A stretch of 64,000 nt of DNA from contig CALWHF010000001.1 of the NCBI GenBank assembly GCA_944380305.1, positions 75,600 through 139,599 on the forward strand, in the 5' to 3' direction. The notes under the pieces are model-generated. The model worked only from the letters and a program-made list of their open reading frames with translations, made no database searches and was not told the origin of the DNA. Source of the DNA: an uncultured Christensenellaceae bacterium (GTDB taxonomy: Bacteria > Bacillota > Clostridia > Christensenellales > UBA3700). Position 1 is the first letter of the stretch, and the number at the start of each line of letters is the position of its first letter. A program made the translations under genes and the position numbers. Positions 1,710 to 60,114 of the stretch are shown one piece after another.

Positions 1710-4184
1710 TTATTTGTAGTTGAGCTGTCCGCCCTTCGAGCTGACGTAATCAGCCCAGTCGCCGTTGTTGTAATTGTAGGTCATATACCTGATGCCGCCG
1801 TAACCCATGAAGGTGTTGTACTCATAGCTGATATAGTCCGTCTTGAAAGACATCAGGGACGCACTGTATTCGTTGAACATCGGCAGAGTGTAATATGCAA
1901 GGAGCACCTGCTCTTCGAGAGCCGCGATAAGAGGAAGTCTGGTTTCCTGAGATACCGCGTTTGCAGACCAGTCGTATGCACTACCTGCGATACCGTTAAG
2001 GCAGTTGTACCAATCCATAAGGCTCATCGTAAGCTCAGTATCCTTATAGGTGCCGTCTTCCTGTTTAACGGGCATCGTGAAGGTCATCTGCTGAGAGGAG
2101 GTATCCCAAGCTGCGGAATACATATAATCGGGAGAGAGGTATGCGAGCAGGAAGTAGCCCGGATCCCATGCAGCGCCCGTCCAGCCTCCGGCACATACGT
2201 CGTACGCACCGCTTCTGAAGTCGTCTGCCCACGCGTCGCCGAAAGACGCATCGAAAACGAGTTCGAACTTACCCTCGAGCTTGGTGCCGACCATAAGCTC
2301 CGTCCATGAATTCTTGACAAACTCGAAATTACGTCTCTGAGCTTCGTTGTCTACCGCGGTACCCCAGACGAGCTGTACTTTGTCGCCTTCTTTCATCTTG
2401 CCGTCAGCAATAGCCTTGTCGTAAGCCTGATCTATAAGCGCTCTTGCCTGAACAAGGTCGTAACCGGTGATAGCGTCGACAGCTTCGTCGAGAGAAGCAT
2501 ACTTGCTTACGTCGATACCGTATACGTTGCAGAGAACCTGCTTAGCAGCGTCGGTTTCACGGTAAGCGCCGCCGTTTTCAACGTCGTAGTAGTGCATGGT
2601 GTTGTAAAGACCGAAACCTGCAAGAGAGCTGGTCGTGCAAGCGCTTGCATAAGCGGCACGGTCGATACCGAGAGAAAGTGCCTTTCTGAACTCAGTGTAA
2701 GTCAGGATGGTCTTGTTGATACCCGCGCTTTCTCTGTTCTTCAGAGCTTCTTCGCTGGACTGCAGCTGGAAGGAAGAAACAAAGTCGGTCGGGGTGAAGT
2801 AAGCCTGTTCGCTGCCCTTGTAGTCGGAAGCGATGGAAACGTCGATGCCGATACCGTCGATCTCGCCCTTCTGGAACTTAAGCCAAGCGGTTTCCCACTC
2901 GCCGATAGTTTCGCAGACGATCTTATCGGTCTGATACTGACCGGGATAGAGGTTTGCGGTATAGCCGTACCAGTTTTCGTTTCTTTCGAGAACATACTCT
3001 TTACCGGACTGGAAGGAGGTCAGCTTGTACGGACCCCAGCTTGCGGTGGTTGCTACGCTGCTGTTGTAATTGGAAGTCCACAGAGTGGAACCGGTTACGG
3101 GAGCCTGCTTGCAGGACTCGTAAAGATCCTTCTTAACGAGAGGCAGCGAAGCAAGCTGATATGCAGCCATATAAGAGAGCGATCCGTCTGCCTTGAGAAG
3201 CGGGATAGCCTTGTCGAGGACAAGAACGAGTTCGTACTCGTTGTCGCCTACGAAAATACCTACGTCTTCAAAGTCAACTTCGGGATAAACGTAATCTTTG
3301 ATAACGGAAAGCATAGCGACTTCTGCATCCGGAGCAGGATTCCAGTCCTTGCATTTACCGTAATCAGCGATCATTGCGTCGGTAACGGGGATCTGTCCGC
3401 TTTCAACTGCTTCGAGGTCGTACTTAGCGAAGAAGTTCTGTCCGAGAGACTCGCCGTTTTCATCGTACATCGTGAAGTAACCGTCGAGATAACCGGCAGC
3501 CTTTGCCTGAGCGTAGTTGACACCCAACCATTCGCCGAAAGCAGCGTTGACAGCGTTCATGTCAAGATAAAGATCGGTATAACCTGCTTCCTTTGCAGCA
3601 GCGATGCCGCTGAACAGGTTGGAAACGGTTTCGTCTACTACAAGACCCTGCTTAGCATAGCCCTGAGCGTTGTGGATAACAGTACCGCTGTTGTAATAGC
3701 TGTCTGCACGGTAGTTTCTGAAGAGCGGGTTGAGCTGCTCTTTCATCGTGTAAACGAAGTCTTCAGCCTTGATCGGAGTGCCGTCGTTCCACTTCAGGTC
3801 GTTTCTCAGAGTGATCTTCCAAGCATAGCCGGTAGCGCCCTCGGCGTAACCGTATTCTTTTGCGTACTCAGCGGTTACGTCTTCCAGCTTGGTAGCAGCG
3901 GAATACTTGACATCGAAATCACCGGTAACTATATTTCCGTCTTCGTCGAACTTGTAGTCAAATTCGAAGAAAGGACTGGAAATGTAGCTCATGATCTGTC
4001 TATCGTTCTCATCCTGATAGGTCAGCTCGTTCCAGTTGGAAGGAGAAACCGCCGTATACGTATTGTACGTGTACAAGTCAGCATCCGGATCGTCCTTCTT
4101 ACAAGCAACAAACGAGAAGACCGTGGTAAACACCACTGCAACGATGATGAGCAAAGTCATCATCTTCTTCAATGATTTGTTCAT
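1710..4184 (-). CDS. ABC transporter substrate-binding lipoprotein (Opp/Dpp family-5-like, unusually long at 824 aa)
   Basis: Lipoprotein signal MNKSLKKMMTLLIIVAVVFTTVFSFVAC followed by a long soluble domain. It heads the two permease genes on the same strand. The family call is from overall sequence character, not a search. Confidence 0.7.
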   Translation of the reverse strand: MNKSLKKMMTLLIIVAVVFTTVFSFVACKKDDPDADLYTYNTYTAVSPSNWNELTYQDENDRQIMSYISSPFFEFDYKFDEDGNIVTGDFDVKYSAATKLEDVTAEYAKEYGYAEGATGYAWKITLRNDLKWNDGTPIKAEDFVYTMKEQLNPLFRNYRADSYYNSGTVIHNAQGYAKQGLVVDETVSNLFSGIAAAKEAGYTDLYLDMNAVNAAFGEWLGVNYAQAKAAGYLDGYFTMYDENGESLGQNFFAKYDLEAVESGQIPVTDAMIADYGKCKDWNPAPDAEVAMLSVIKDYVYPEVDFEDVGIFVGDNEYELVLVLDKAIPLLKADGSLSYMAAYQLASLPLVKKDLYESCKQAPVTGSTLWTSNYNSSVATTASWGPYKLTSFQSGKEYVLERNENWYGYTANLYPGQYQTDKIVCETIGEWETAWLKFQKGEIDGIGIDVSIASDYKGSEQAYFTPTDFVSSFQLQSSEEALKNRESAGINKTILTYTEFRKALSLGIDRAAYASACTTSSLAGFGLYNTMHYYDVENGGAYRETDAAKQVLCNVYGIDVSKYASLDEAVDAITGYDLVQARALIDQAYDKAIADGKMKEGDKVQLVWGTAVDNEAQRRNFEFVKNSWTELMVGTKLEGKFELVFDASFGDAWADDFRSGAYDVCAGGWTGAAWDPGYFLLAYLSPDYMYSAAWDTSSQQMTFTMPVKQEDGTYKDTELTMSLMDWYNCLNGIAGSAYDWSANAVSQETRLPLIAALEEQVLLAYYTLPMFNEYSASLMSFKTDYISYEYNTFMGYGGIRYMTYNYNNGDWADYVSSKGGQLNYK

Positions 4185-4436
4185 ATAAAATCCTCCGTTT
4201 TTATTATGCGCCTTTCGCGCTTTTTCTCTAATTTATTATCGACATACGCCCGTATGCCGCCGCCGACCCGTGCCGACGGAAAAACCCGACTGGTTTTCAA
4301 ACCGTTTTTAACGATATTTTAATTCTAGTATAGCGTGTGCCGGTTTGTCAACACACATTTGCGCTTTTATTCGTGTATGCGTAATTTAATACACATATGT
4401 GTACGTCGCGTGAAAACCTTAGATTTTATCATATCG

Positions 4437-9707: not shown

Positions 9708-10598
9708 ATGATCGACAAAAACAAGTTCAAGGGCGTGTTGCCCGCATTGCTGACCCCGTTCGACAAGGACGGCAACGTAAGCAAATCGTCGGTAGACAAA
9801 CTTGTCAGATACAACCTCAAAAAAGGCGTCAACGGCTTCTACGTAGGCGGTTCGACCGGCGAAGGCATTCTCCTTACCATAGAGGAGAGGATCGCGCTGT
9901 TCAACTACGCGGCTGAAGCCAACGAAGGCAAATCCACCCTTATCGCACACGTCGGCACTATCGCCACCAAGCACGCGATCGAGATGGCTAAGGGCGCAGA
10001 AAAAGCGGGCTTCGACGCGATAAGTGCAGTCGCACCTTACTACTTCAAGTTCGGCACCGAGGCTATCAAACAATATTATTACGACATAGCGTCCAGCGTA
10101 AACATCCCGATGATAATCTACAATTTCCCCGGCGCAAACGGTTTCTCTCTCGACAAGGAGACCGCCGAAAACATGTTCGCGGCAAACGACAAGTTCATCG
10201 GCATCAAGCACACGACTTCGGATATGTACGCTCTGCAACAGTTCAAGACGATGAAGGCAGACCCGATCGTCTACAACGGTTTCGACGAGATGTTCCTCGG
10301 CGGACTCGCTATGGGCGCGGACGGCGGTATCGGCAGCACTTACAACTTCATGGCTGAAAAGTTCATCGGTATCTACAACGCATTCAAGAAGGGCGACATC
10401 AAAGAAGCTCAGCGCGTTCAGAACGAGGCAAACGAGATCATCAACGTCCTCATCAAATACGGCGTATTCGCAAGCGAAAAATACGTGCTCGACTGCCTCG
10501 GTATTCCTATGGGCGGTTGCCGCAAGCCTTTCCTTCCCCTCTGCGAAGAAGGCAAGAAGGTACTCGCCGATATAGCTAAACAGTTCCCTACGGCATAA
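9708..10598 (+). CDS. nanA: N-acetylneuraminate lyase
   Basis: ATG 9708 follows GGAGGA. MIDKNKFKGVLPALLTPFDKDGNV...GFYVGGSTGE is a DHDPS/NAL-family signature. It sits within the nan cluster. Confidence 0.9.
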   Translation: MIDKNKFKGVLPALLTPFDKDGNVSKSSVDKLVRYNLKKGVNGFYVGGSTGEGILLTIEERIALFNYAAEANEGKSTLIAHVGTIATKHAIEMAKGAEKAGFDAISAVAPYYFKFGTEAIKQYYYDIASSVNIPMIIYNFPGANGFSLDKETAENMFAANDKFIGIKHTTSDMYALQQFKTMKADPIVYNGFDEMFLGGLAMGADGGIGSTYNFMAEKFIGIYNAFKKGDIKEAQRVQNEANEIINVLIKYGVFASEKYVLDCLGIPMGGCRKPFLPLCEEGKKVLADIAKQFPTA

Positions 10599-51740: not shown

Positions 51741-52358
51741 TTAGACTTTATCTTTTATCGCATTGTATTTATTCTGGATTCTTTCTCGTCTTCTCCATAC
51801 GTTGGAGCGGTCTATTTTTAACGTATCCGCTATTTCAACAAAGCGCATACCTGCTATATAGCAGTCCAGAGTTTGTCTTTCACCTTTGGTCAGCTTCATC
51901 TTGCGTATTATCTTAGCACACTTTCTGAAGGATTCTTCTAAATCTTCCTTGAAAAACTCCTGTTCGTAGCAATCTGTTTTTATATAGATTTCTCTCGTAT
52001 TTCTGTTAAAAAGCCATCTCTTGTAAATCTCGTTGCTAACGACTCGGCTGCACAGTCTGTACAACGTAACAAGTTTACCTGTCTTCGGATCTTCGCATAA
52101 ATCCAATACGTATTCACCGAAATGCTCGCATAAAAAGCAAATTGCCGCCTGAGCTAAGTAGTATCCTTCCGTGATTATGTAGCCGGGCACGTTCTTGTAG
52201 TTAATATCCCTTACAAGTCCGACGTACACGCTTCTGGGTACTTTTATAAGCACCAATTTCTGCACCGTTTTCAGCGCAATAAGTTCCCCGATCTGCATTA
52301 CGTTACCAGGGGAGATCTTCTCCTCAAACACATCGTAACAGTTTCTTTTTGTTCCCAT
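51741..52358 (-). CDS. Sigma-70 region-4-like HTH protein (mobile-element-type small sigma/regulator)
   Basis: 205 aa. The C-terminus LTKGERQTLDCYIAGMRFVEIADTLKIDRSNVWRRRERI matches the sigma-70 region 4 / LuxR-like HTH pattern. The N-terminal part is unrecognised. Confidence 0.5.
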   Translation of the reverse strand: MGTKRNCYDVFEEKISPGNVMQIGELIALKTVQKLVLIKVPRSVYVGLVRDINYKNVPGYIITEGYYLAQAAICFLCEHFGEYVLDLCEDPKTGKLVTLYRLCSRVVSNEIYKRWLFNRNTREIYIKTDCYEQEFFKEDLEESFRKCAKIIRKMKLTKGERQTLDCYIAGMRFVEIADTLKIDRSNVWRRRERIQNKYNAIKDKV

Positions 52359-52728
52359 TTTCTTTACCTCCGAAAATAAATTTGCCTTTCGGCAGGCAAC
52401 AACGGAACATAAGCCGAATTGAGGTAAAGATATATTTTAGTCATTATCCGAAAGTCAACGGATAAAAAGAAAAATCCTGAAACAGGATTTTACGACCGTT
52501 TACTTTTGAGAGGATTATGCGACAATGCCAAACGAAAAGGCAAATTCGGAGGAAAAGAAAAGCCGTAAGACAAATTGAATTTAATCTGCAAATAAGATGT
52601 TCGGAATAAGGTACGCAATGAAGCGAAAAATAAGCGAGAGGCGAAAAGCGGAGAAATGCCCAAAGCGGTTCAGCGGGCATCTCCGCCCGCTACTGCTTTT
52701 CCGTTTTGCGACATTCCGAATCTGAGTA

Positions 52729-52795
52729 GGCGTGTGCTTGTCTGGCGGAGCGAAGCGACGCCACTTGTCATAGACAAGCACACGCCACGGTGCCA
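52729..52795 (+). repeat. 15-bp perfect inverted repeat whose right arm belongs to a 31-32-nt sequence repeated at 57102-57132
   Basis: GGCGTGTGCTTGTCT (52729-52743) and AGACAAGCACACGCC (52772-52786). CTTGTCATAGACAAGCACACGCCACGGTGCCA (52764-52795) recurs at 57102-57132. Confidence 0.8.
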
Positions 52796-52929
52796 TAAAA
52801 TAGTTTCATCTGCTTAACAATTATTATTGCTACGCTATGCAAGCTTATTATAAAATAAAGTAAATAGACATAGCTCACCTTGATTTTTAATTTTTAGTTA
52901 CATGTCTGCTATAATTGAAATAAATTCAG

Positions 52930-52948
52930 CTTTTACAGATTTTTATTC
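52930..52948 (+). repeat. 19-nt exact direct repeat, copy 1
   Basis: CTTTTACAGATTTTTATTC is identical to 63765-63783. Confidence 0.85.
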
Positions 52949-52966
52949 TGTTATGTAGGATTAATA

Positions 52967-53083
52967 ATGGTACTTAGTTATAAGAAATTATGGAAAATAC
53001 TTATTAATCGCGACATGAAAAAGAAAGATTTATGTGCTGCGGCAGGAATTAGCCATACTTCGATGTCAAAACTTGTAATGTAA
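52967..53083 (+). pseudogene. Truncated XRE-type HTH regulator (38 codons)
   Basis: My translation is MVLSYKKLWKILINRDMKKKDLCAAAGISHTSMSKLVM*. This is the first ~2.5 helices of the short Cro/C1-type HTH proteins common in Firmicutes, cut off by a stop. A tandem TGTAATAA TGTAATAA follows, then an abrupt AT-to-GC composition change near 53090. Confidence 0.55.
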
Positions 53084-53105
53084 TAATGTAATAAGCTACA
53101 ACCCG

Positions 53106-53200
53106 CGACAGCCGACCAATGCTCCCGCCACGCGGGCGACAGCCGACTATTGCTGCGGTCACACCGCTGACAGTCGACTAATGCTCCCCGTCACACGGGG
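53106..53200 (+). repeat. Three head-to-tail 31/31/33-nt units, each an 18-nt conserved box plus a covarying 5-bp hairpin
   Basis: Units lie at 53106-53136, 53137-53167 and 53168-53200. The boxes are CGACAGCCGACCAATGCT, CGACAGCCGACTATTGCT and TGACAGTCGACTAATGCT. The hairpins are CCCGC-cac-GCGGG, GCGGT-cac-ACCGC and CCCCG-tcaca-CGGGG. Confidence 0.85.
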
Positions 53201-53403
53201 CGAGGCGTTTAACGCAGTAGCTGCGAAAATTTGCCGATTTAAACTGGGTTCGTATTATTCAGGTCCGGTATTACGCAAACTTTGCGGCTTCGCTTACGCA
53301 TAAGCGGAACAAGTTGATAAGACGGGTTTTTTATGGGGAATTATTTGTCGTGTGGTATTGCCGGGCGACAGGTTGGCTCTGAGGTTAATGATCGAAAGAA
53401 TAC

Positions 53404-53432
53404 GGGCGCCGGATCCCGGCGCCCGCTTTTTT
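53404..53432 (+). terminator. Strong rho-independent terminator
   Basis: GGGCGCCGG-atc-CCGGCGCCC 9-bp GC stem, then GC and T6. Confidence 0.8.
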
Positions 53433-53618
53433 CACAGAAATCGAAATTTGATAATATACATTCTTATATGTCTGTCTAAGTCGTATAAAACAATCCGGAA
53501 AGGATTTCATTAGCGTCCGCTGCTGCCATTGCTAAACGAGTTGAGTAAGACATAAGATTATAGCGTAACAGATCTTTGAATTTCAAATTTCAAATATCTT
53601 CTTTTAATAAAAATCGTA

Positions 53619-54650
53619 TCATTTGCGTATATACTCATCGTTGTGGGCATTGCTTACAAGCCACATCTTAGCGACATAGTCGTCCGTAGGCCACATAGAC
53701 GCCGGAAGCGGCGATTCTCCGTTGTCGTTTTTACAATACCAACCGTTTTTATTCATAAACGTTGCGCTCTCGAGAGAAGAACAATACTCGAATGCGGCTA
53801 CTCCTATATATTTGAGATTTTCAGGGAACGTTATGCTTGTAAGTCCGGTATTCCTGAATGCGCCAGCGTTGATTTTCTCGATACTTTCAGGCAAAACAAC
53901 GCTTTCTAACGAGGTGCAGTTTGCAAAAGCGTAGCTGCCGATCTCTGTAATGCCTTCAGCGATCGTCAAAGAAGAATCTGAGCCGGTATAAGTCAATATC
54001 ACGCTTTCGTCATAGAGAGTATAGTCTCCTTCAACTGCGATCTTGGTATCTGCGACGTCGTCAATGATATTTCTCGCGTAATAAGCCGCATAACCGTTAT
54101 TTGTGCTGCCTGCCGTAAGAGAGATAGAAGATTTATTGACAATCTCCACCAGTCTGAAGCAACCGGCAAACGCACTGTCTCCTATGCTTTGCAGATTTTC
54201 GCCCAAGGTTACTCTTACGAGTCCTTCGCAATGCCAGAACGCGCTGCTTTTTATCGTGGTTACGGCGTCGGGAATAACGACTTCTTTAAGACCGATACAG
54301 GAATAAAATGCCTCATTTCCGATCTCGGTTACGCTATCCGGGATCACGACGCTTTCAAGATCGTAGCACTCGTAAAATGCCTGAACGGCAATTGACGTAA
54401 CTGCTTTGCCGTTGACCTCGGCAAGTATCGTTACGCTTGTCAAGTCATCAGTACATTTGTAAAACTGATAAGTTCCGTCATCGTTCTTTTTGTAAGTCAA
54501 ACCGTCATTTTTCACCCAAGTATCGTCTTCTGTAGAAGTATCATCCTGGTCGGAAGCAGGAGTACAAGCGACCGCAAACATCGCAAACGCCAACACAACG
54601 ACCACTGCGAGTACGGTCAGAAGAAATACCGATCTTCTTTTTTGCAACAT
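53619..54650 (-). CDS. BspA-type leucine-rich-repeat surface lipoprotein
   Basis: Signal plus lipobox LLTVLAVVVVLAFAMFAVAC. It has repeated ~23-aa LRR_5-type units (IPDSVTEIGNEAFYSCIGLKEVVIPDAVTTIKSSAFWHCEGLVRVTLGENLQSIGDSAFAGC...). Confidence 0.8.
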   Translation of the reverse strand: MLQKRRSVFLLTVLAVVVVLAFAMFAVACTPASDQDDTSTEDDTWVKNDGLTYKKNDDGTYQFYKCTDDLTSVTILAEVNGKAVTSIAVQAFYECYDLESVVIPDSVTEIGNEAFYSCIGLKEVVIPDAVTTIKSSAFWHCEGLVRVTLGENLQSIGDSAFAGCFRLVEIVNKSSISLTAGSTNNGYAAYYARNIIDDVADTKIAVEGDYTLYDESVILTYTGSDSSLTIAEGITEIGSYAFANCTSLESVVLPESIEKINAGAFRNTGLTSITFPENLKYIGVAAFEYCSSLESATFMNKNGWYCKNDNGESPLPASMWPTDDYVAKMWLVSNAHNDEYIRK

Positions 54651-54828: not shown

Positions 54829-56235
54829 ATGCGGGTATCGAAACAATCAAAACAACGGTTAAAAACGATTGCAATATTTATTGCCGACCTTATGGCTCTT
54901 GTCGTAGGTGTGATCTCTGTCGCGATACTGTCTTCAACGAACACTTCCTCGACAGTATATTTTTCGGGATTTCTGATCTATTTTTCTATTATCGCCCTAT
55001 TCCTGTTCACGCTGATAATTATCGTGGACTGCTATGCGATGTTTGCGATAAAGACGTCGACGTATCACTCTTTGCTGATGGCACTTTGCATAATGGTCTG
55101 CTGTTTACTGTCTGAAGACTATCTGTCGCTGTTAGATCTGTCCTCGGCGTACGGAACCGTCTCGAACATCGTCCAGTACGGAGTTTATACGTTATTCCTC
55201 GCGATAGTCGTCATTTTCTTCGACTTCTCTTACAAACTCGGGATGTCAAAAAAGCGTAAGCTGAGCTATTTTGCCGTCTGTGTACTGTCTTTCGTGCTTT
55301 TTGCCGCTCTGTATCGGGTAAAACTGCATATCTTGGCGTATTGCCTTGGCCTTGCGATGACAGTCGAACTGTCTTATTACACTTCTCACAACCCGAATGT
55401 GCACTGCTTCAATTCTCATTCTTTCCGCCCGACGCAGTTTATCACGTTCGCTCTGAGCGGGCTCATCCTTACCAACACGATATATTCGTCGGGGTTTGTA
55501 GAGAACTACCCCTTCGGGACGACCTCTTTTTACTTGTTCACGTCGACTCTTGTTTACGCTTTTATATATTTCAGTTTTATTCGCAAAGCGACGAAAAGAG
55601 ACCTCGCAAACGCGCAGTACAGAGCGAAGTACGAACAGGTAAAATCGGGTATGTTGCAAGCGCAGATAAAGCCGCATTTCGTGTTCAACGTGCTGTTATC
55701 GATAAAGAATCTCTACCACAGCGACACCGAACTGGGGGACGAAGCAATAGATCTGTTTTCCAAACACCTGCGCGCGCAGGTAGAAGCCGCAGGTGCCGAC
55801 ATGGTGCCTTTTGAAAAAGAACTGGACACCATCCGCGTGTTTACCGATCTAGAAAACATACGTCAGGATAAAGAACTGAACCTGATATTCGATATAGAAT
55901 ATTCCGATTTTCAGATACCTGCCCTGTCGCTGCAGACTTTTATCGAAAATGCGATAAAATACAGCAGGATAAACGAAAAAGAGGACGGATATATCCGCAT
56001 ATCCTCCCGATGCGAAAACGGAGAAATATTGCTCGAGATCTCGGATAACGGCGTGGGGTTCGACCCTTCGGAGATCAGGGACACGTCTTACGGGATACGC
56101 AATTCTGTCGAACGCTTCCGTCTTCTGACGGGCGTGACTCCCGAAATAATCAGCTCACCAGGAAACGGCACGTCGATAATGATACGTTTCAATAAATCCT
56201 CATCGGAGAAACACCATGAAAATAATAATAGTTGA
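54829..56235 (+). CDS. Membrane sensor histidine kinase, LytS/YehU-type (His_kinase internal region + HATPase)
   Basis: Multi-TM N-terminal half. The H-box region is QIKPHFVFNVLLSIKNLYH. The ATPase boxes are FIENAIKYS, SDNGVGF and GNGTSIMIRF. Confidence 0.8.
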   Translation: MRVSKQSKQRLKTIAIFIADLMALVVGVISVAILSSTNTSSTVYFSGFLIYFSIIALFLFTLIIIVDCYAMFAIKTSTYHSLLMALCIMVCCLLSEDYLSLLDLSSAYGTVSNIVQYGVYTLFLAIVVIFFDFSYKLGMSKKRKLSYFAVCVLSFVLFAALYRVKLHILAYCLGLAMTVELSYYTSHNPNVHCFNSHSFRPTQFITFALSGLILTNTIYSSGFVENYPFGTTSFYLFTSTLVYAFIYFSFIRKATKRDLANAQYRAKYEQVKSGMLQAQIKPHFVFNVLLSIKNLYHSDTELGDEAIDLFSKHLRAQVEAAGADMVPFEKELDTIRVFTDLENIRQDKELNLIFDIEYSDFQIPALSLQTFIENAIKYSRINEKEDGYIRISSRCENGEILLEISDNGVGFDPSEIRDTSYGIRNSVERFRLLTGVTPEIISSPGNGTSIMIRFNKSSSEKHHENNNS

Positions 56236-58671: not shown

Positions 58672-60114
58672 ATGGAAAATCTGTTTGTCAATGCAATTAA
58701 ATTCGGATTTATGTTCCCCAGCGTATTATACATATATGCCGGATTGCTTCGCATTAGTCTGCATAAAAAAATGATTTTTCATTTACCCGTGTGGATAATT
58801 CTTGCTTTTACAATAGCTTTCTCAACAAAAGAACTAAATGTATTGCAACCTTTTGCATTTCTTCTGATAGCTTTTCTATATCTTCTTATCGCGTATAGAA
58901 AACCTCTCAAAACGTCGGTATCGTACAGTTTTATTTCGGTCGGCATCTGTTTCTTTTTACTTACGATAAGTTACCTGATCACACTGCCGATAACTTTTGC
59001 GTTTTCGTTTATCGACAACGTTACGCTTTCGCTTTATATTATGACCGTAATTATCGGTATAATTCAATTGGTGTTATCTATCGTGGTATTCAAAATTAAG
59101 CGATTCAAAAACGGGCTTATGCTCACTAAGAATGACAACCATTTTTCTTTGCTGATAGTAATAAGCGCAATAACTATTTCAGTTTCATCTCTTTTTTATA
59201 CAGAATTTTTCGACTCATACTATATGTTTATAATATTTTTTGTCGTATCGGCGATAGGCGCGGTAGCTCTTCTGTTATGGAATGCCGTGCTTGCCAACAG
59301 GTATAAAAGCGAAATTTACAAACGTAACGTCGCTATTTATGAAAAAACTCTGGCTGAATACGAAAGCCGCAACAAGAACATTGCAGACGACAACAGTAAA
59401 CTATCGGCAGTGATTCACAGAGACAATAAGTTTATTTCCGTCATGGAAATTGCCGTTGCGGACGTATTAAACGGTAAATGCGATAAAAAATCAGCAGGAG
59501 AGTTACTTAAAACGCTTGAAGAACTCTCATCGCAACGCAAAGAACTTATCCGCGATTGCGAAAACAACAAGGATACTTTGCCAAAAACAGGAGATATTGC
59601 CATAGACTCAACCCTAATCTACGTCCGATCCGTAGCCAAAAATTTCGGTGTTGACGCATCTTTCGACATAGACGACGGTTTTATCGACACATTGCAAAAC
59701 CTGATAGACATGACTCATTTCAACACTTTGCTTTGCGACATATGCGAAAATGCCATTCATGCCGCCGAAACCGCACCTGACGGTAAAATCTTTCTTTCGA
59801 TGAAAATTGACAATGGCTTCCCTGCCGTAACGATAAAAGACAACGGTGCGCCTTTCGACGAAAAGGTTCTGAGTTCTATCGGCAGGATCCGTATAACGAC
59901 GCGCAAAAACAAAGGAGGTTCGGGCATAGGTCTCGTATACATATTCGAAATCCTTCAGAAATACGGCGCAAGTTTCTGCCTCGACGAAATTCCCGACGGC
60001 AGTTTCGCTAAATCGATAACTTTGCGTTTCGACAGCCGTGCCCGACTCGAAGTCAACACTAATCGTCCGAATGTGGCAAAGGCTTTCAAAAATCGCACGA
60101 CGATTTACGACTGA
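58672..60114 (+). CDS. Membrane sensor histidine kinase, AgrC/HPK10-like (GHKL ATPase)
   Basis: The N-terminal half has about 6 TM helices. The candidate phospho-His region is LSAVIHRDNKFISVME. The ATPase region contains ICENAIHAAE, KDNGAPFDEKVL and KGGSGIGLVYIFEILQKYGA. Confidence 0.7.
   Translation: MENLFVNAIKFGFMFPSVLYIYAGLLRISLHKKMIFHLPVWIILAFTIAFSTKELNVLQPFAFLLIAFLYLLIAYRKPLKTSVSYSFISVGICFFLLTISYLITLPITFAFSFIDNVTLSLYIMTVIIGIIQLVLSIVVFKIKRFKNGLMLTKNDNHFSLLIVISAITISVSSLFYTEFFDSYYMFIIFFVVSAIGAVALLLWNAVLANRYKSEIYKRNVAIYEKTLAEYESRNKNIADDNSKLSAVIHRDNKFISVMEIAVADVLNGKCDKKSAGELLKTLEELSSQRKELIRDCENNKDTLPKTGDIAIDSTLIYVRSVAKNFGVDASFDIDDGFIDTLQNLIDMTHFNTLLCDICENAIHAAETAPDGKIFLSMKIDNGFPAVTIKDNGAPFDEKVLSSIGRIRITTRKNKGGSGIGLVYIFEILQKYGASFCLDEIPDGSFAKSITLRFDSRARLEVNTNRPNVAKAFKNRTTIYD

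Follow-up and report, generated by a model that had tools for sequence, protein, structure and literature searches.

A co-varying hairpin array in an uncultured Christensenellaceae genome is probably a genus-specific modular repeat in a truncated MITE arm

Among the closest described counterparts of the repeat analysed here is BOX of Streptococcus pneumoniae, a composite, non-coding and dispersed element with the layout boxA - boxB(n) - boxC, in which a variable tandem module is placed between conserved end modules; the module forms a stem-loop mostly by itself, boxB copy number differs among loci and strains, and the transposase that mobilises the element is uncertain (PMC3049150). The REP, BIME and REPIN sequences are described (PMC2817692, PMC3116915, PMC3733652) as short palindromes outside genes, each having variable paired stems next to a conserved tag, assembled into composite and lineage-specific intergenic arrays that often lie between convergent genes. 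Bacterial MITEs such as RUP, Nezha and Correia provide a third term of comparison. As for type III toxin-antitoxin systems, their ToxI-type antitoxins consist of tandem RNA repeats, each about 30-36 nt long; a terminator comes next, and after it the gene of a toxin endoribonuclease on the same strand.

The window, that is, the whole 64-kb stretch of DNA that was analysed, harbours three head-to-tail units of 31, 31 and 33 nt at 53106-53200, as a preliminary description had reported (Table 1). Each unit, hereafter A-unit, is made of an 18-nt box and of a GC-rich stem of 5-6 bp (5, 5 and 6 bp, respectively) that closes an invariant CAC triloop, the closing pair being C-G or T-A across the three. 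Tandem Repeats Finder delineates 53101-53196 as a repeat of period 31 with 3.1 copies. A degenerate form of the box has exactly three matches within the 64-kb window, and with up to three mismatches allowed there are four, against 0.48 expected, a number reached by none of 100 shuffled sequences. We consider it probable that the A-units are a genus-specific modular selfish repeat, of which the window holds an inactive, left-truncated MITE relic. As the units are found inside the broken end of a MITE, they are best regarded as selfish repeat DNA and not as a dedicated RNA gene.

Table 1. Features of the array region in the window, and other A-unit loci of the same genome (contig numbers are given for the latter).
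Feature	Position	Strand	Description
Relic XRE/Cro-type HTH gene	52967..53083	+	38 codons + stop; ends where MITE-derived sequence begins
MITE-internal spacer ATAATGTAATAAGCTACAACCCG	53084..53105	+	precedes A-units in other copies; aligns with G001 copy L035 (alignment A3)
A-unit 1	53106..53136	+	box CGACAGCCGACCAATGCT 53106-53123; stem CCCGC/GCGGG; CAC triloop
A-unit 2	53137..53167	+	box CGACAGCCGACTATTGCT 53137-53154; stem GCGGT/ACCGC; CAC triloop
A-unit 3, arm-proximal type	53168..53200	+	box TGACAGTCGACTAATGCT 53168-53185; stem CCCCGT/ACGGGG; CAC triloop
MITE right-arm subterminal segment, 47 nt	53201..53247	+	82-83% identical to MITE right ends; collinear in A3
24-bp terminal inverted repeat GTTCGTATTATTCAGGTCCGGTAT	53248..53271	+	right end only
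Unique non-coding DNA with small hairpins	53272..53402		no second copy in own genome or genus
Bidirectional intrinsic-terminator-like hairpin	53403..53432		T-run on + strand, T-rich tail on - strand
Segment common with G007 (start)	53427..53506		99% identity; IS200-type element immediately left in G007
A-unit array	C5:113933-114141		three copies, 84-nt period; between PHP-type gene and ung
A-unit array	C6:26833-27000		three copies; between convergent genes
A-unit array	C10:48062-48190		two copies; between co-directional genes
Single diverged A-units	C21 (~530-567), C12 (~59413-59455)		one each

The carrier was characterised in the window's own assembly (1.94 Mb in 33 contigs), where it is a MITE of 279 bp with perfect 24-bp terminal inverted repeats (ATACCAGACCAGAATAATACGAAC ... 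GTTCGTATTATTCTGGTCTGGTAT). Four complete 279-bp copies are 99.6-100% identical, and all of them are devoid of A-units. The family at large, which ranges from 130 to 550 bp, has the features of a MITE, namely inverted repeats at both ends and small, non-coding, dispersed and near-identical copies. There are 14 MITE ends in the window's own genome and up to 82 in a related one (G013), and the element occurs in at least 111 stretches of public Christensenellaceae MAGs, the hosts being recorded as uncultured Christensenellaceae, "Christensenella sp." MAGs or Candidatus Ornithoclostridium faecavium. The flanks of the copies read (T)ATA...TAT(A), and apart from the invariant ATA/TAT they share no direct repeat. 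When the flanks of the copy on contig C15 of the same genome were joined to look for an empty site, only the flanking gene aligned across species, the intergenic DNA being too diverged. We infer the presumed mobility of the MITE only from its identical dispersed copies. A literature search for MITEs in Christensenellaceae retrieved no paper; the MITE family is previously undescribed, and the repeat family is new for uncultured gut Christensenellaceae.

The array of the window belongs to the right arm of this element. In an alignment of MITE copies (A3), 53084-53271 is collinear with the right arm in the order spacer (ATAATGTAATAAnCTACAACCCG), units, 47-nt segment and terminal inverted repeat, and at least five copies in the same genome have right ends that match 53203-53271 at 82-83% identity. 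The number of units differs between the aligned copies, which in the sister species are longer variants of the MITE, with one in G001, two in each of two copies of G013 and three in the window. Throughout the alignment the arm-proximal unit is of the CCCCGT/ACGGGG type, and in the MITE copies of G001 and G013 it directly adjoins the subterminal segment, as does unit 3 of the window. The first unit is of the (A/C)CCGC type both in the G013 copies, where it precedes the terminal unit, and in the window (CCCGC/GCGGG). The window arm has an extra GCGGT/ACCGC unit between these two, a stem type that is also present in a G013 array lacking terminal inverted repeats (locus L024), again 31 nt from the next unit. 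Unit copy number, which the preliminary description had suggested comparing between strains, varies from one copy of the element to another, in a range of 0 to 3. Among the 78 evaluable MITE ends from 80 public loci, 72 have no unit, three have one and three have two. In some MITE copies of G001, the left arm has a unit as well, which is diverged and inverted. Since near-identical young copies of the MITE are without units, the latter are optional cargo, not required in cis for current mobility; and since A-units also form arrays without inverted repeats, the module is independent of the MITE.

The left end of the window copy is missing, as no partner inverted repeat is present on the window's contig at up to four mismatches, and the arm abuts a truncated XRE gene; the copy is therefore a truncated relic. 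The corresponding ORF (52967-53083), with a promoter-like site upstream (52932-52961), matches Pfam HTH_26 over profile positions 1-31 of 63 only (E = 1e-7), and there is no intact XRE paralogue in the same genome. An 8-nt tandem duplication (TAATGTAA x 2.4) is located at 53076-53094. Because the XRE junction is not a terminal-repeat junction, it reflects deletion or illegitimate recombination, not simple insertion. The same junction is present in another genome: contig C49 of G001 shares 52474-53138 of the window (665 bp) at 95% identity, between unrelated flanking genes, and the common segment comprises the same truncated XRE gene, junction and spacer, and an identical unit 1. Past unit 1, the G001 contig continues with 13 nt of the left-arm type and an inverted repeat, whereas the window continues with units 2 and 3 and the right arm. 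In the simplest reading, recombination within or between A-units would have shuffled the arms. A metagenome collection scanned for the XRE-spacer-unit junction, with a view to strain-level copy number, yielded 0 matches.

A-units are also found at five or more other intergenic sites of the genome, always in direct orientation within each array. When the box alone was searched with up to three mismatches, 127 matches were obtained in the genome. A CAC hairpin of at least 5 bp is associated with only 11 of them, the true family members, and a single one of the 116 background matches reaches a 4-bp stem; box and hairpin are therefore strictly coupled. In arrays of longer period (about 74-84 nt), the A-unit alternates with a spacer and a second module, B, whose core GTCGC-GGG-GCGAC is a 5-bp mini-hairpin. 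The A-unit is confined to a single uncultured Christensenellaceae genus (Ca. Ornithoclostridium and allies), in which its strict pattern is present in 7 of 15 genomes with 2 to 32 copies each. Many of these matches are located within 100-300 bp of contig ends, which agrees with a repeat at which assemblies break. In the other genera of the family and order we found just two single matches, which is chance level, and when 401 genomes of the order, representing 173 genera, were surveyed, three isolated matches turned up outside the genus, compared with four for a reversed control pattern.

The preliminary description had proposed that the hairpins are kept by compensatory change, and homologous arrays from other species, among them those of an orthologous locus, bear this out. 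We collected 24 distinct units from seven genomes and anchored them on the box and the loop; the flanking bases were taken regardless of pairing, and a 6-pair helix was counted. In this set, 81.3% of the cells are paired as against 64.0% after shuffling, two-sided changes occupy 25 cells as against 9.7, and the co-variation score is 0.473 as against 0.197. None of 500 shuffles attained these values. Two-sided changes are present in five of the six helix pairs, and no slid register of the A-unit helix exceeds 57.6% pairing. At the locus orthologous to the array of contig C6, an array is present in G001, G008 and G010, and its stems differ in sequence yet are still paired. Thus, the last unit reads GTCGGT/ACCGAC in G001 and GCCGGT/ACCGGC in G010, and it has one mismatch in G008. 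With compensatory change seen both in the family-wide statistics and at the orthologous locus, the central observation of the preliminary description is right and general. Nevertheless, there are only about 8-10 stem types, each copied many times, so that the co-variation reflects a limited number of old events and the number of independent compensatory events is modest. As for folding energies, the three units jointly are no more stable than shuffled sequence (z = -0.35). The z-score of the whole 346 nt (-3.46) is attributed mostly to the terminator. The structural signal of the units therefore rests on co-variation, not on folding energy.

How do these features compare with the systems mentioned above? 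The architectural traits of BOX recur in the A-unit family, including a right arm with 0, 1, 2 or 3 units in otherwise collinear copies, although this is a likeness by analogy only, and no sequence relation was seen. The A-unit, with its 31-33 nt and its GC-rich 5-6 bp CAC-triloop hairpin, is shorter than boxB. Its end modules are true 24-bp inverted repeats of the MITE, the MITE is most successful now without the module, and A-units also form arrays without any end modules. The traits listed for REP, BIME and REPIN sequences are likewise shared, but A-units have low copy numbers (about 12 in the window's own genome and at least 32 in the richest one, versus more than 100 for REP) and occur in direct tandem instead of alternating (BIME) or in inverted pairs (REPIN). 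Moreover, their conserved part is an 18-nt box, unlike the GTAG or CGTC tetranucleotide beside the stem of REP. No RAYT is encoded in any unit-bearing genome: PF01797 (Y1/RAYT) is absent from the window's own genome and is found in the genus only in G007 and G009, both without units. An identity with REP/RAYT was rejected on the basis of this absence and of the anti-correlation with units in the genus. As for RUP, Nezha, Correia and other bacterial MITEs, they resemble the carrier, a non-coding element of 130-550 bp with perfect 24-bp terminal inverted repeats, whose many near-identical copies break short-read assemblies. The differences are that the window contains one decayed arm, that no cognate IS was identified, that there is no clear target-site duplication, and that only a minority of the copies bear the hairpin units as cargo.

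The explanation that we consider probable is the following. The A-unit occurs in two ways, as tandem arrays in ordinary intergenic DNA, either alone with a 31-nt period or together with B with a period of about 74-84 nt, and as an insert of 0-3 copies in MITE arms. Unit number probably changes by slipped-strand mispairing or by unequal recombination between units, and the units probably act as recombination patches that shuffle MITE arms. The hairpin might be needed by the process that spreads the module or lets it be tolerated, in the form of folded single-stranded DNA, a cruciform, or a harmless or stabilising RNA stem-loop. Alternatively, intrastrand template switching may regenerate perfect palindromes and keep the hairpin in this way. 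At the window locus itself, the array would have no dedicated function, and a transcript from the promoter of the relic XRE gene would read through it to the terminator at 53403-53432. The A-unit behaves like boxB within BOX, as a self-contained stem-loop of variable number (PMC3049150), and it also resembles the REP modules of BIMEs (PMC2817692).

A different account is that the A-units are arm or subterminal sites of a recombinase or transposase, or substrates of a hairpin-specific enzyme that spreads the module in a RAYT/REP-like manner. The preliminary description had offered recombinase or transposase arm sites of a mobile element as an alternative. The mobile-element part of that proposal is closest to what is there, a MITE arm; the part that invokes transposase arm sites is less easily reconciled with the young copies, which are devoid of units. 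The preliminary description had also said that its reading would fall if the segment were the known end of a described IS, and the MITE arm comes close to that in spirit, although the MITE family itself is undescribed. In three species the units keep a constant distance of 47 nt to the right inverted repeat, as would be expected of such sites, and they can occur in both arms in inverted orientation. The combination of a conserved box and triloop with variable stems is typical of a protein-recognised hairpin, and the module spreads outside MITEs too. However, neither the youngest MITE copies nor 72 of the 78 public ends have a unit, Y1/RAYT genes are found in none of the seven unit-bearing genomes, and none of the arrays is linked to a candidate gene for such an enzyme. 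In the window, the neighbours of the array are the relic XRE gene, a LuxR/sigma-like gene and a BspA-type LRR gene. All in all, we regard this account as rather unlikely.

We also looked for an autonomous IS that might share the ends of the MITE. None was found in the small contigs checked, and no pair of inverted repeats lies 1-6 kb apart in the three rich genomes G001, G006 and G010. In these three and in the public loci, there are no inverted-repeat pairs more than 700 bp apart, and the unpaired MITE ends in the 80 public loci all correspond to truncated MITEs. A self-BLAST of the window's own genome revealed no multi-copy segment of at least 400 bp, except for an unrelated 1-kb module, and no multi-copy IS. 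The missing IS is weak evidence, since the genomes of the genus are, with one exception, fragmented MAGs.

The invariant CAC triloop and the well-conserved single-stranded box across species suggest that the A-unit has a specific binding partner, which counts against a purely selfish or neutral account. Such a partner might be a sequence- and structure-specific protein other than RAYT, either an enzyme (nuclease or recombinase) by which the module is copied or a DNA- or RNA-binding protein of the host. That the A-unit is the recognition element of such a protein is a speculative idea to which we give little weight. If it were true, the invariant box (GA...TGC) and the CAC triloop would be kept by selection in the different species, at the orthologous locus as well.

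Could the units act as RNA? They might form a sponge-like array that binds a protein, or stem-loops co-opted by the host for stabilisation or attenuation, with 53106-53432 being a functional 3' UTR or sRNA. The preliminary description had considered a single non-coding RNA of ~330 nt plausible here, a reading that finds no support: the interval is a mosaic of at least four pieces of different origins, and as a whole block it is not conserved in any other genome compared. The A-units (53106-53200) are followed by a 71-bp MITE end (53201-53271), by unique DNA (53272-53402) and by the terminator, which abuts DNA shared with G007. As had been stated, the region is free of substantial ORFs, none reaching 60 aa in 53100-53432, and two short ones of 40 and 48 aa have no Pfam match. 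Within the unique part, a box-like GGGCGACAGGTTGGC at about 53365 had been pointed out, but it could not be assigned to the repeat family. By eye, 53272-53402 is reminiscent of decayed B-modules (GGCTTCGC..., GGGCGACAG...). This likeness was dropped, as an nhmmer profile of the B-module (14 sequences, --max, E = 10) recovers the true B-modules of the genome and has no match in 53272-53432.

The strong terminator noted earlier is indeed present, in the form of a T-run preceded by a hairpin (53403-53425) with 10-11 GC pairs. It is predicted to be a terminator on both strands. The convergent BspA-type LRR gene (53619-54650, minus strand) ends about 190 nt before it and could equally be served by it. 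The terminator is at another junction, because the sequence from 53427 onwards is 99% identical to DNA of G007, where an IS200-type element adjoins it; the Y1 transposase gene of that genome is at G007:C3:230487-230843.

With the promoter-like site at 52932-52961 and the terminator at 53403-53432, a plus-strand transcript across the units is plausible. In addition, the array of contig C10 is sense-oriented, its last hairpin being a few nt upstream of the ribosome-binding site of the next gene, and the hairpin is kept at the orthologous locus in four species. Nevertheless, several observations argue against a role as RNA. The preliminary description had matched the array to no RNA family, and the Rfam searches likewise returned no relevant one. 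At the gathering threshold, Rfam 15 reports three tRNAs and nothing else in the 64-kb window, and with E up to 10 the best match in 52400-53700 has 20 bits for a threshold of 70. The arrays of contigs C5 and C6 lie upstream of a promoter or beyond a terminator, and the units borne by MITEs are found in both orientations. The consensus of the full A-B period contains almost no structure beyond two 5-bp mini-hairpins (-7.9 kcal/mol, with a co-variation term of -0.05). Together with the mosaic nature of the interval and the folding of the units no better than shuffles, these observations make a function as RNA improbable.

As for an antitoxin array of the ToxI type, or an integrated replicon with iterons or a partition site (the latter two having been suggested in the preliminary description), the tandem period of ~31-33 nt followed by a terminator is all that speaks for them, and we consider either identity extremely unlikely, given that the site is chromosomal, that the plus strand has no gene after 53432 until that of a histidine kinase at 54829, that there is no Rep, Par or endoribonuclease gene nearby, and that the module is scattered in both orientations over many chromosomal intergenic sites and inside MITEs; the ToxI-like identity, iterons and a partition site were all rejected on gene content, there being no toxin gene downstream of the A-unit locus in the first case.

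If the A-units are, as we think probable, a genus-specific modular selfish repeat, then a co-varying hairpin array finds its explanation in a lineage-specific repeat and MITE system, which avoids its annotation as a new regulatory RNA. The repeat family fragments the metagenome assemblies of uncultured gut Christensenellaceae, many of its copies being found at contig ends, and, like BOX and REP elements in other bacteria, it might be of use in strain typing. The recognition or propagation of a REP-like hairpin module in genomes that lack a RAYT transposase is of wider interest.

The MITE, a non-coding element with terminal inverted repeats whose decayed right arm carries the A-units (18-nt box plus hairpin) in the window, is present elsewhere in the own genome as complete copies that are 99.6-100% identical to one another. 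All four have perfect 24-bp inverted repeats and are flanked by (T)ATA...TAT(A). No transposase with ends matching those of the MITE was found in the own-genome assembly. The family reaches its maximum in one sister genome, with 82 ends. One exact copy of the inverted repeat was also observed on a 2969 bp contig (CALUQQ010000068.1, L069) binned as Candidatus Gastranaerophilales; a binning error is more likely than a true occurrence outside Christensenellaceae.

In three sister genomes, a near-copy of the MITE inverted repeat comes immediately after the 3'-terminal ACCA of a tRNA gene and provides the terminator hairpin of this tRNA with its 5' arm. The corresponding tRNA in the own genome has a different terminator. 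Either a MITE inserted at this site and collapsed, or the tRNA-end sequence is the source of the MITE's ends.

Coordinates of the repeats and shared segments (C, contigs; G, sister genomes of the same genus; L, loci; contigs without a G number belong to the own genome)
Feature	Location	Counterpart (identity)
Complete 279-bp MITE copies (n=4), outside the window	C3:27214-27492; C9:48240-48518; C15:5128-5406; C19:26717-26995	
tRNA end, near-identical to MITE inverted repeat (L058)	G004:C12, ~10100-10155	
tRNA end, near-identical to MITE inverted repeat (L059)	G009:C40, ~4150-4260	
tRNA end, similar to L058/L059 (L057)	G014:C2, ~310200-310300	
1-kb module	window 51778-52799	C10:943-1964 (91%); C13:154-1172 (82%)
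Additional intergenic repeat modules	C21:1-300; C12:59330-59700	
665-bp block (L043/L046)	window 52474-53138	G001:C49:26921-27621 (95%)
80-nt stretch (L061/L064)	window 53427-53506	G007:C3:231022-231101 (99%)

Several small-repeat families appear to be interleaved in the own genome. The additional intergenic modules lie beside tRNA genes, together with A-units and B modules (the second mini-hairpin of longer-period arrays), and resemble tRNA 3' ends (e.g. ...GAGCGAATATCCCTC...). The 1-kb module comprises a minus-strand gene for a 205-aa LuxR/sigma-like HTH protein and the region upstream of it; its non-coding part (52474-52796) is multi-copy genus-wide, at 85-92% identity. A family of integrative elements appears to have this module as its regulatory end.

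The 665-bp block contains the upstream 320-nt repeat, the relic XRE gene (a truncated HTH gene) with its promoter, and A-unit 1, and in G001 it adjoins a truncated ABC-ATPase gene. Its recurrence there as a single block argues that this relic DNA was moved or transferred as one unit. Further right, the sister species G007 carries an IS200-type element encoding a Y1 transposase, and its insertion point corresponds exactly to window position 53426/53427. From the comparison with G007, the AT-rich block lying right of the shared 80 nt, with its LRR gene and kinases, appears to be recently shared DNA.
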